A stretch of DNA of 334 nt from Escherichia coli (GCF_003334335.1 NZ_QOWQ01000217.1), one strand, 5' to 3'. Numbered from the stretch's first letter, positions 1-334 are shown. Notes: generated by a model not told the origin, from the letters alone. Numbers and translations are program-made.

Positions 1-334
1 GTCCGGTGGCCATCACGCCCTATACCCTGATGCAGGCCATTGCGGCGGAAGGTGATGTCACCACACCGGTGGTGGTGAAGCCGTCGGATGGAGAAGGCAC
101 AGTTATCAGCACCACCAGCGAACCGGAGTATTACTTTGTTGTTGTTCTGGCGGGGCAGTCAAACTCAATGTCTTTTGGTGAAGGGCTGCCGCTGCCGGAT
201 ACATATGACCGTCCGGACCCGCGTATTAAACAGCTGGCGCGTCGCAGTACGGTGACGCCGGGTGGTGTCGCCTGTAAATATAACGACATCATTCCGGCGG
301 ACCATTGTCTGCATGATGTACAGGACATGAGCCG
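1..334 (+). CDS. nanS: Internal fragment (5' and 3' ends outside the window) of an SGNH-hydrolase / sialate O-acetylesterase (SASA)-family protein, most likely a NanS-like 9-O-acetyl-N-acetylneuraminate esterase, possibly the prophage-type (NanS-p) form with an N-terminal extension
   Basis: Seen in sequence: the frame starting at nt 3 is open to nt 334 with no stop codon (first full codon 3-5, last full codon 330-332). Translation: PVAITPYTLMQAIAAEGDVTTPVVVKPSDGEGTVISTTSEPEYYFVVVLAGQSNSMSFGEGLPLPDTYDRPDPRIKQLARRSTVTPGGVACKYNDIIPADHCLHDVQDMS. Both other + frames hit stops within the first ~55 nt (tga at 28-30 in frame 1; tga at 53-55 in frame 2). Established knowledge: hydrophobic beta-strand followed by GQSN(A/S)M is the block-I nucleophile motif of SASA/SGNH esterases. 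The GEGLPLPD...DPRIKQLARRSTVTPGG...C.YNDIIPADHCLHDVQDMS stretch matches my recollection of E. coli NanS/YjhS-family proteins; this is recalled, not searched. Codon usage (ctg, ccg, gcg, cgt, ggt favoured) looks enterobacterial. The strand and frame are well supported; the specific NanS assignment is less certain. Confidence 0.8.
51..128 (+). other. Low-complexity Thr/Val/Pro/Ser-rich segment (GDVTTPVVVKPSDGEGTVISTTSEPE), putative interdomain linker upstream of the esterase core
   Basis: Seen in sequence: codons 17-42 of the open frame are dominated by T, V, P, S, G, E and D with no long hydrophobic run, directly preceding the first beta-strand of the esterase domain. Inference: this composition is typical of flexible linkers between domains and suggests another domain is encoded upstream of the window. 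Confidence 0.4.
153..164 (+). other. GQSN active-site motif (SGNH block I); putative catalytic nucleophile Ser encoded by tca at 159-161
   Basis: Seen in sequence: ggg cag tca aac at 153-164 encodes G-Q-S-N, immediately after the hydrophobic run YYFVVVLA (codons at 129-152). Established knowledge: in SASA/SGNH esterases the Ser of this motif is the nucleophile. The downstream catalytic Asp/His block lies beyond the window and cannot be confirmed. Confidence 0.7.

Follow-up and report, generated by a model that had tools for sequence, protein, structure and literature searches.

An internal segment of the phage-borne sialate O-acetylesterase gene nanS-p and the co-variation of its DUF1737 domain with phage head type

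The stretch of Escherichia coli DNA analysed here (GCF_003334335.1, NZ_QOWQ01000217.1; 334 nt, hereafter the window) is an unremarkable piece from the interior of nanS-p, a phage-borne sialic-acid O-acetylesterase gene, in a lambda-like E. coli phage. Its identity to positions 18946-19279 of Escherichia phage PhiR5_1 (PV340545.1) is 100%, and there it lies inside the coding sequence (CDS) 18846..20834 and covers codons 35-144 of this 662-codon gene, with one partial codon at either end. Frame +3 is the only one open over all 334 bases in a six-frame translation, and its peptide (PVAITPYTLMQAIAAEGDVTTPVVVKPSDGEGTVISTTSEPEYYFVVVLAGQSNSM...) contains the GQSN motif. An earlier note made from the window alone (the original prediction) had placed it wholly inside one gene, with no intergenic DNA and no repeat array, and both statements are borne out: we found no tandem repeats in the window, and its near-repeats (two direct ones of 12 nt and two inverted ones of 11 nt) are at chance level. 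The sequence is also widespread. The window matches 302 phage records, about 300 others besides PhiR5_1 being 80-95% identical to it and mainly belonging to Shiga toxin (Stx)-converting phages, and among 5426 complete E. coli genomes 1020 carry a match, at 2621 places in all; the median per positive genome is 3 places, the maximum 7.

The full protein has three recognisable parts. Pfam places DUF1737 (PF08410) at residues 3-50 (E 2.3e-15), SASA at residues 81-276 (E 4.2e-9) and DUF6645 at residues 511-619 (E 1.6e-32). Moreover, a sequence search against the PDB aligned residues 74-394 to 3PT5, described as 'NanS (YjhS), a 9-O-acetyl N-acetylneuraminic acid esterase' (E 1.6e-114), and residues 448-656 to 6YP6, described as 'NanS-p' (E 3.8e-48), which is a lectin-like jelly-roll C-terminal domain. 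The N-terminus is therefore occupied by DUF1737, and by eye a hydrophobic leader is absent. The only NCBIfam match of the full protein, to LysJ, was below threshold and was rejected as spurious, and the family assignment rests on the PDB search, on the full-protein Pfam matches and on PHROG 143, the family to which the window belongs (phrog_143, labelled 'unknown function'). With the SGNH blocks of NanS and NanS-p defined as in PMC10462455, all four are present (GQSN at 85-88, R188-G189, WMQGE.D at 245-251, that is W245...D251, and R370..H373), and they show little or no variation among 81 homologues. The domain matches and the intact SGNH blocks thus identify the gene product as a prophage sialate O-acetylesterase of the NanS-p type that is predicted to be active. 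In fact, all the features that define NanS-p and can be read from a sequence are present: the SASA domain, the SGNH blocks, DUF1737, the C-terminal lectin-like domain and the location between the antiterminator gene Q and the holin gene S (the Q-S slot). We consider it very probable (roughly 0.93) that the window comes from within nanS-p, a prophage-borne paralogue of E. coli NanS, in the stx-negative, lambda-like PhiR5_1.

The original prediction had also assigned the entire window to one recognisable enzyme family, and this needs to be qualified on two counts. Codons 74-144 do encode a NanS-type esterase, but codons 35-73 correspond to the end of DUF1737 and to a fast-evolving linker, so that the domain fusion junction lies inside the window and about a third of the window is non-enzymatic. 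As for being recognisable, the 110-aa window peptide alone aligns with NanS over its residues 40-109 only (3PT5 residues 17-86, E 6.4e-27), but it gives no match in Pfam or NCBIfam. The features of the window are collected in Table 1.

Table 1. Features encoded in the 334-nt window (residues are numbered in the 662-residue PhiR5_1 protein).
Feature	Window position	Strand	Basis
Internal nanS-p coding fragment, frame +3	1..334	+	100% match inside CDS 18846..20834; third-position substitution bias
DUF1737, C-terminal third (residues 35-50)	3..50	+	Pfam DUF1737 at residues 3-50
DUF1737 variable loop (residues 35-43)	3-29	+	Allele alignment
Tyr41, probable equivalent of Tyr42 in phi24B gp84, which plugs the capsomer	21-23	+	Loop comparison
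Interdomain linker 1 (residues 51-73)	51..119	+	Relaxed constraint; hypervariable, with an indel among alleles
GDVTTP, at the position of GSISSP (proposed cleavage) in phi24B gp84	51-68	+	Position in linker 1
SGNH/SASA sialate O-acetylesterase catalytic domain, first 71 residues (74-144)	120..332	+	PDB 3PT5 alignment
SGNH block I, GQSN (residues 85-88)	153..164	+	Invariant in 81/81 homologues; aligned to GQSN of 3PT5
Predicted nucleophile Ser87 (TCA)	159-161	+	Within GQSN

The way in which the window varies agrees with this layout. The window region of 80 related IMG/VR loci and two annotated relatives was codon-aligned, which yielded 43 distinct nucleotide versions. Differences between the window and the 42 distinct homologous versions amounted to 284, 284 and 1121 at codon positions 1, 2 and 3, respectively, and the pairwise ratio of nonsynonymous to synonymous substitution rates (dN/dS) was 0-0.34 wherever dS could be estimated, one very divergent version being saturated. 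This third-position bias, together with the low dN/dS, indicates that frame +3 is translated under purifying selection. The mean proportions of nonsynonymous and synonymous differences (pN/pS) were 0.040/0.321 for residues 35-50, 0.143/0.251 for residues 51-73 (linker 1) and 0.049/0.309 for residues 74-144. As pN of residues 51-73 is raised with respect to both flanking domains, this segment evolves like a linker.

The same alignment bears on whether the window hides a second functional element beside nanS-p, be it an antisense gene that overlaps the coding frame, a promoter inside it or a regulatory RNA. Open reading frames (ORFs) in frames other than +3 are short (22-65 aa), and the two longest of those followed across the versions are broken in about half of them: a 65-aa minus-strand ORF (131-328) survives in 20 of 43 versions and is broken in 23, and a 55-aa ORF in frame +1 (88-255) is intact in 18 of 42 and broken in 24. 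The only candidate that could speak for a second gene is a 49-aa minus-strand ORF (165-314), open in 40 of the 43 versions. However, this openness is to be expected of a codon-aligned antisense frame, in which stops arise only from sense TTA, CTA and TCA codons, and its own stop is the complement of the TCA codon of Ser89; the comparison of versions points to a by-product of sense coding and not to a gene. Furthermore, substitutions pile up at the third positions of the sense frame with no trace of a second constraint, no promoter-like site lies in the window (the single one in 17400-21800 of PV340545.1 is at 18852-18824), the sole terminator-like site inside the gene falls outside the window and no Rfam match was found within the gene. 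A second element is thus highly improbable, and the statement of the original prediction that the window contains no second gene stands.

PhiR5_1 is a lambda-like temperate phage of 50,981 bp with int/xis, exo/bet/gam, cI/cro/cII, O/P, the nin genes, Q and lysis genes. Its head genes are of the lambda type (Nu1/A/W/B/C/D/E/FI/FII, with C/Nu3), its tail genes follow the order Z-U-V-G-T-H-M-L-K-I-J, plus lom, and no stx genes are present in the record. The three-domain nanS-p gene (18846-20834) lies between Q (17469-17849) and the holin gene S (21560-21775), in the Q-dependent late operon and just upstream of the lysis cassette; it has a ribosome-binding site (GGGAGGA) 5 nt before the ATG, and the PV340545.1 record annotates its product (XSB41304.1, 662 aa) as a 'hypothetical protein'. 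Between Q and nanS-p there are two small ORFs and a small RNA (sRNA) of the STnc100 type, and nanS-p is followed by small ORFs of the DUF1378 and DUF826 types. No tRNA genes were found in PV340545.1 17000-22000, and PADLOC gave no match for NanS-p or for any of the three small neighbouring ORFs submitted to it. A literature search on PhiR5_1 itself yielded no relevant paper.

These flanks also support the view taken in the original prediction from the window, namely that it gave no evidence of a novel multi-gene system. Annotation of the surroundings for phage, lysis, integrase and defence genes, as had been proposed, returned an integrase together with lysis, head and tail genes, that is, an ordinary temperate phage with a standard Q-S slot for nanS-p. 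Neither a novel multi-gene system nor a defence island was found at the nanS-p locus, where the upstream content varies freely between loci and the downstream DUF1378, DUF826 and holin genes are standard lysis neighbours. The original prediction had named, as what would speak against it, a fusion or an operon with genes of unknown or unexpected function. In a literal sense both exist, as the gene is fused to DUF1737 and DUF6645 and is accompanied by DUF1378 and DUF826 ORFs, but this architecture and this neighbourhood are published and standard (PMC10462455; PMC8065619; PDB 6YP6).

Several other observations were made in the PhiR5_1 record. The STnc100 sRNA match (RF02076; 18417-18622, plus strand) scores 143 bits against a gathering score of 47, is unannotated in PV340545.1, lies 224 nt upstream of the nanS-p start and has a terminator-like hairpin at its end (18592-18611); sRNAs of the STnc100/PasD type have been linked to esterase genes in Stx-type prophages (2026 preprint). 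A 107-aa minus-strand ORF (18524-18847), whose start overlaps the nanS-p ATG (CATG), is probably spurious, being Arg-rich and overlapping two terminator-like hairpins; it was also rejected as IraM, as it bears no relation to the 107-aa 'iraM' annotated at the corresponding position of the Stx2a phage EH2201. Downstream of nanS-p, the 96-aa ORF at 21194-21484 is labelled 'head completion protein' in PV340545.1, and an ORF of equal size and offset in E. coli NCTC9112 is labelled 'DUF826 domain-containing protein'; this family occurs in all 33 of the loci used below for the co-variation analysis. Far from nanS-p, a HipA-like protein of 249 aa and its 275-aa partner (annotated HipA/HipD; 7915-9488, minus strand) adjoin cI (9611-10366), occupy the position of rexAB in lambda and have matches in PADLOC to PDC-M66A/PDC-M66B, a candidate defence pair (E 6e-15 and 3.8e-16). 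The 425-bp gap to the left of this pair (7490-7915) contains no ORF of at least 60 aa on either strand; it is the expected place of a lambda-like N antiterminator gene, and no N gene is annotated in PV340545.1.

The closest known relatives of this gene are the NanS-p proteins of enterohaemorrhagic and Shiga toxin-producing E. coli (EHEC and STEC), such as 933Wp42/Z1466 of phage 933W, vb_24B_21 (gp84) of phi24B and NanS-p1..7 of EDL933, which likewise combine DUF1737, an SASA/SGNH domain and a lectin-like C-terminal domain, and which have in common with PhiR5_1 the catalytic blocks and the position in the late operon between Q and S. Their published diversity, a domain-wise mosaic of alleles (PMC10462455), is seen here too. 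They differ in the carrier, as PhiR5_1 is an stx-negative phage of the lambda type whereas 933W is of the podovirus type, and in sequence. The PhiR5_1 protein is 55% identical overall to the VT2-Sakai/933W-type protein, with 64% in DUF1737, 13% in linker 1, 70% in the catalytic domain, 21% in linker 2 and 44% in the C-terminal domain, and SGNH block IV (numbering of PMC10462455) reads RKTH in PhiR5_1 in contrast to RSSH or RASH in these proteins. The chromosomal NanS (YjhS, 3PT5) has a homologous catalytic domain (PhiR5_1 residues 74-394 against NanS 17-333, with the E value given above), and GQSN, QGE.D and R..H are conserved in both proteins. However, NanS consists of a single domain, has a length of about 330 residues and lacks DUF1737 and the C-terminal lectin domain, and its gene belongs to the nanCMS sialic-acid operon, not to a phage late operon.

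A nearly identical allele is already in RefSeq. WP_126502619.1, a 662-aa 'SASA family carbohydrate esterase' from a prophage of E. coli NCTC9112, differs from the PhiR5_1 protein at residue 2 only, the window DNA is 99.4% identical in this copy, and DUF1378, DUF826 and the holin gene follow it as in PhiR5_1. Unlike in PhiR5_1, the cargo between Q and nanS-p in NCTC9112 consists of a DNA methyltransferase, three tRNAs, TerB and DUF3927, and in a Stx2a phage the order is Q, methylase, three tRNAs, stx2A, stx2B, 'iraM', nanS-p ('yjhS'), two small ORFs and holin. These gene orders show that the slot and its downstream neighbours are conserved and that the upstream cargo is variable, which had been published before, as had the occurrence of nanS-p in the Q-S slot of both Stx phages and non-Stx prophages (PMC10462455). 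Hence the literature and RefSeq between them already cover the gene, with its architecture, position and mosaic diversity, as well as a near-identical allele. In one IMG/VR relative (L068, 894-2729) the nanS-p frame is truncated at 349 aa, which may reflect a frameshift or a disruption by an insertion sequence like those reported in some Stx2a phages.

Several functions have been established for the published enzymes. NanS-p proteins remove O-acetyl groups from Neu5,9Ac2 and from mucin glycans with one, two or three of them, they enable growth on Neu5,9Ac2 and confer a growth advantage, and their genes are found in phages without stx as well as in Stx phages (PMC8065619; PMC10462455). In Stx2a phages, quantitative PCR showed that nanS-p expression rises by 1-2.4 logs after induction with mitomycin C (PMC10462455). 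By analogy with these close homologues, and given its position downstream of Q, the PhiR5_1 gene would be transcribed upon prophage induction. Lysis would set its product free, and the esterase would strip Neu5,9Ac2 and mucin O-glycans of their 9-O-acetyl groups, which would make sialic acid usable by the E. coli population.

A further role has been described for one member of the family. In phi24B, gp84 is reported to be a virion protein whose DUF1737 domain (residues 2-57) sits as a hexamer on the hexons at the facet centres of the T=9 capsid, with Tyr42 as an anchor that plugs the capsomer pore; gp84 is apparently cut twice, once after about residue 54-57, adjacent to SISSP, and once between its catalytic and its lectin domain, and SSP is the only feature common to both linkers near the proposed cleavage sites (bioRxiv 10.64898/2026.04.10.717836). 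PhiR5_1 NanS-p resembles this capsid decoration protein (and, by analogy, T4 Hoc) in having a homologous DUF1737 with a Tyr in the putative anchor loop, and differs from it in that its association with the virion is hypothetical and that it is encoded together with lambda-type head genes. The loop Tyr is present in nearly every allele seen, with a loop length that differs among alleles. Where phi24B gp84 has GSISSP, PhiR5_1 has GDVTTP, and TTP occurs in both of its linkers (residues 54-56, window 60-68, and residues 413-415), a weak parallel to the SSP of gp84. By analogy with gp84, the N-terminal domain could also dock the enzyme onto the phage capsid, in which case the loop encoded at window 3-29 would help to set the capsid type, and the linker at window 51-119 would be a tether or a cleavage region that later frees the enzyme; we put this at a little less than an even chance.

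To what extent DUF1737 follows the phage head was addressed by comparing loci. Relatives of the PhiR5_1 protein and of the phi24B-type allele were refetched with 10-kb flanks, their large downstream ORFs were clustered, and the clusters were named by PHROGs, which gave four head modules: Hlam, which includes PhiR5_1 (TerL phrog_15, portal phrog_21), H2 (TerL phrog_9, major head protein phrog_617, portal phrog_2271), H3 (TerL phrog_15, protease/head fusion phrog_133, portal phrog_21) and H4 (portal phrog_156, TerL phrog_2), the portal of the latter being 100% identical to those of 933W and VT2-Sakai. The sample comprised 33 non-identical loci, which collapse to 21 unique domain/head combinations. 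DUF1737 falls into three types. Type A, that of PhiR5_1 (SPVAITPYT), occurs with Hlam at 9 loci, with H2 at 9 and with H3 at 1; type B, that of phi24B (S[TNS]AGYG), occurs with H4 at 3 and with H2 at 1; and type C (FSSYTDDGAAL) occurs with H3 at 10. The adjusted mutual information (AMI) between DUF1737 type and head module was 0.62 over the 33 loci, a value reached by 0 of 2000 permutations. The other segments of nanS-p, which are physically closer to the head genes than DUF1737, scored 0.14 (linker 1), 0.14 (catalytic domain), 0.14 (linker 2) and 0.19 (C-terminal domain). The difference persisted among the 21 unique combinations, with an AMI of 0.48 for DUF1737 versus -0.05 to -0.11 for the other segments. 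Within DUF1737, residues 1-17 are invariant, residues 18-33 gave 0.51 and residues 34-50 gave 0.60, and the window encodes half of the residues (18-50) that bear the head-module signal.

Both flanks of the gene could stay linked to the head type without any selection if its middle underwent short-patch gene conversion, and the upstream side was therefore also examined. A control with nucleotide windows at fixed offsets was discarded, as it over-split the loci into 20-25 types and even terminase windows reached only 0.23; with such windows, the last 300 nt upstream of nanS-p fell into 10 types with an AMI of -0.02. It was replaced by the presence or absence of protein families against head type, which gave -0.02 to 0.27 for upstream families, -0.01 to 0.26 for families of the lysis region and 0.30 to 0.64 for true head-module families. 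On this scale the DUF1737 types scored 0.46 (A), 0.28 (B) and 0.51 (C). DUF1737 thus stands apart from its surroundings in being associated with the head module, which fits a functional coupling with the capsid, and suggests as a hypothesis, from these sequence comparisons, that the capsid coupling of DUF1737 may extend from phi24B to other head lineages. In that case DUF1737 would be a head-type-specific capsid anchor in several lambdoid head lineages, including the lambda-type PhiR5_1 and not phi24B alone, and NanS-p, in a large share of E. coli prophages, a mucus-active enzyme displayed on the virion, a broader claim that we hold tentatively, at clearly less than even odds. PhiR5_1 NanS-p is at most a candidate for the class of capsid-decorating esterases of the phi24B type.

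The enzyme might instead be a 'moron' product that benefits the lysogen and is released by lysis only, with a DUF1737 that has no capsid role in a lambda-type head; the link to the head module would then reflect shared ancestry of the prophage backbone, the middle of the gene having been shuffled by short-patch gene conversion among copies. The several nanS-p copies in each carrying genome would favour such conversion, the type A domain occurs with two unrelated head modules, and the growth advantage is experimentally supported and does not need any association with the virion (PMC8065619). Furthermore, binding in phi24B is confined to a hexon position that the T=7 shell lacks. Against this explanation, backbone linkage should also tie the upstream region to the head type, whereas upstream families stay at or below 0.27 and the last 300 nt show no association, and residues 18-50 of DUF1737 form an isolated AMI peak (0.51-0.60) between flanking segments that do not exceed 0.14. 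We judge a purely lysogen-serving enzyme to be a serious alternative, with a probability just short of one half. It has also been raised as a possibility, both in PMC8065619 and in the phi24B preprint (bioRxiv 10.64898/2026.04.10.717836), that the esterase serves the phage itself rather than feeding lysogens, by de-O-acetylating the host lipopolysaccharide O-antigen or capsule, or mucus sialoglycans, and so aiding adsorption or movement through mucus. The virion association of gp84 and the lectin-like C-terminal domain would fit a particle-borne enzyme, and the C-terminal domain is very diverse (its types are mutually 36-50% identical), as is often the case in receptor-binding modules. However, an attachment role has no experimental evidence according to a review (PMC8065619), the catalytic and lectin domains of the phi24B protein are apparently cleaved off the particle, and the C-terminal type tracks no phage module examined here, so a role of this kind appears unlikely.

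The reading of PhiR5_1 NanS-p as an active esterase that may also bind the capsid has to be set against several points. Type A pairs with both Hlam and H2, and there are two exceptions to the pattern of DUF1737 types and head modules. The sample of 33 loci is small and not phylogenetically independent. The PhiR5_1 loop is 3 residues shorter than that of the phi24B type, and Tyr41 is placed 2 columns off in an alignment that is ambiguous between allele types. The head of PhiR5_1 is Hlam and not the H4 of the 933W/phi24B type (T=9, with a facet-centre hexon); in lambda, head genes of this kind build a T=7 shell, which is not known to have a facet-centre hexon. As for the enzyme itself, its activity is predicted for the PhiR5_1 allele and known from other alleles, and its C-terminal domain shares only about 44% identity with the one crystallised from phi24B, so that the ligand specificity may differ. 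Finally, the phi24B result comes from one preprint and concerns a podovirus T=9 head with binding confined to the facet-centre hexon (bioRxiv 10.64898/2026.04.10.717836).

The window matters little in itself, since the nanS-p family is experimentally characterised and partly solved in structure, and about one in five complete E. coli genomes carries it. In practical terms, the 'hypothetical protein' of PhiR5_1 could be re-annotated as a sialate O-acetylesterase of the NanS-p type. The co-variation of DUF1737 with the head module offers independent comparative support for the recent proposal that NanS-p is a capsid-decorating protein, and it predicts that this would apply to lambda-type heads too. 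If this is true, the multiple nanS-p copies of EHEC would be, beyond metabolic cargo, structural accessories of phages that interact with mucus.

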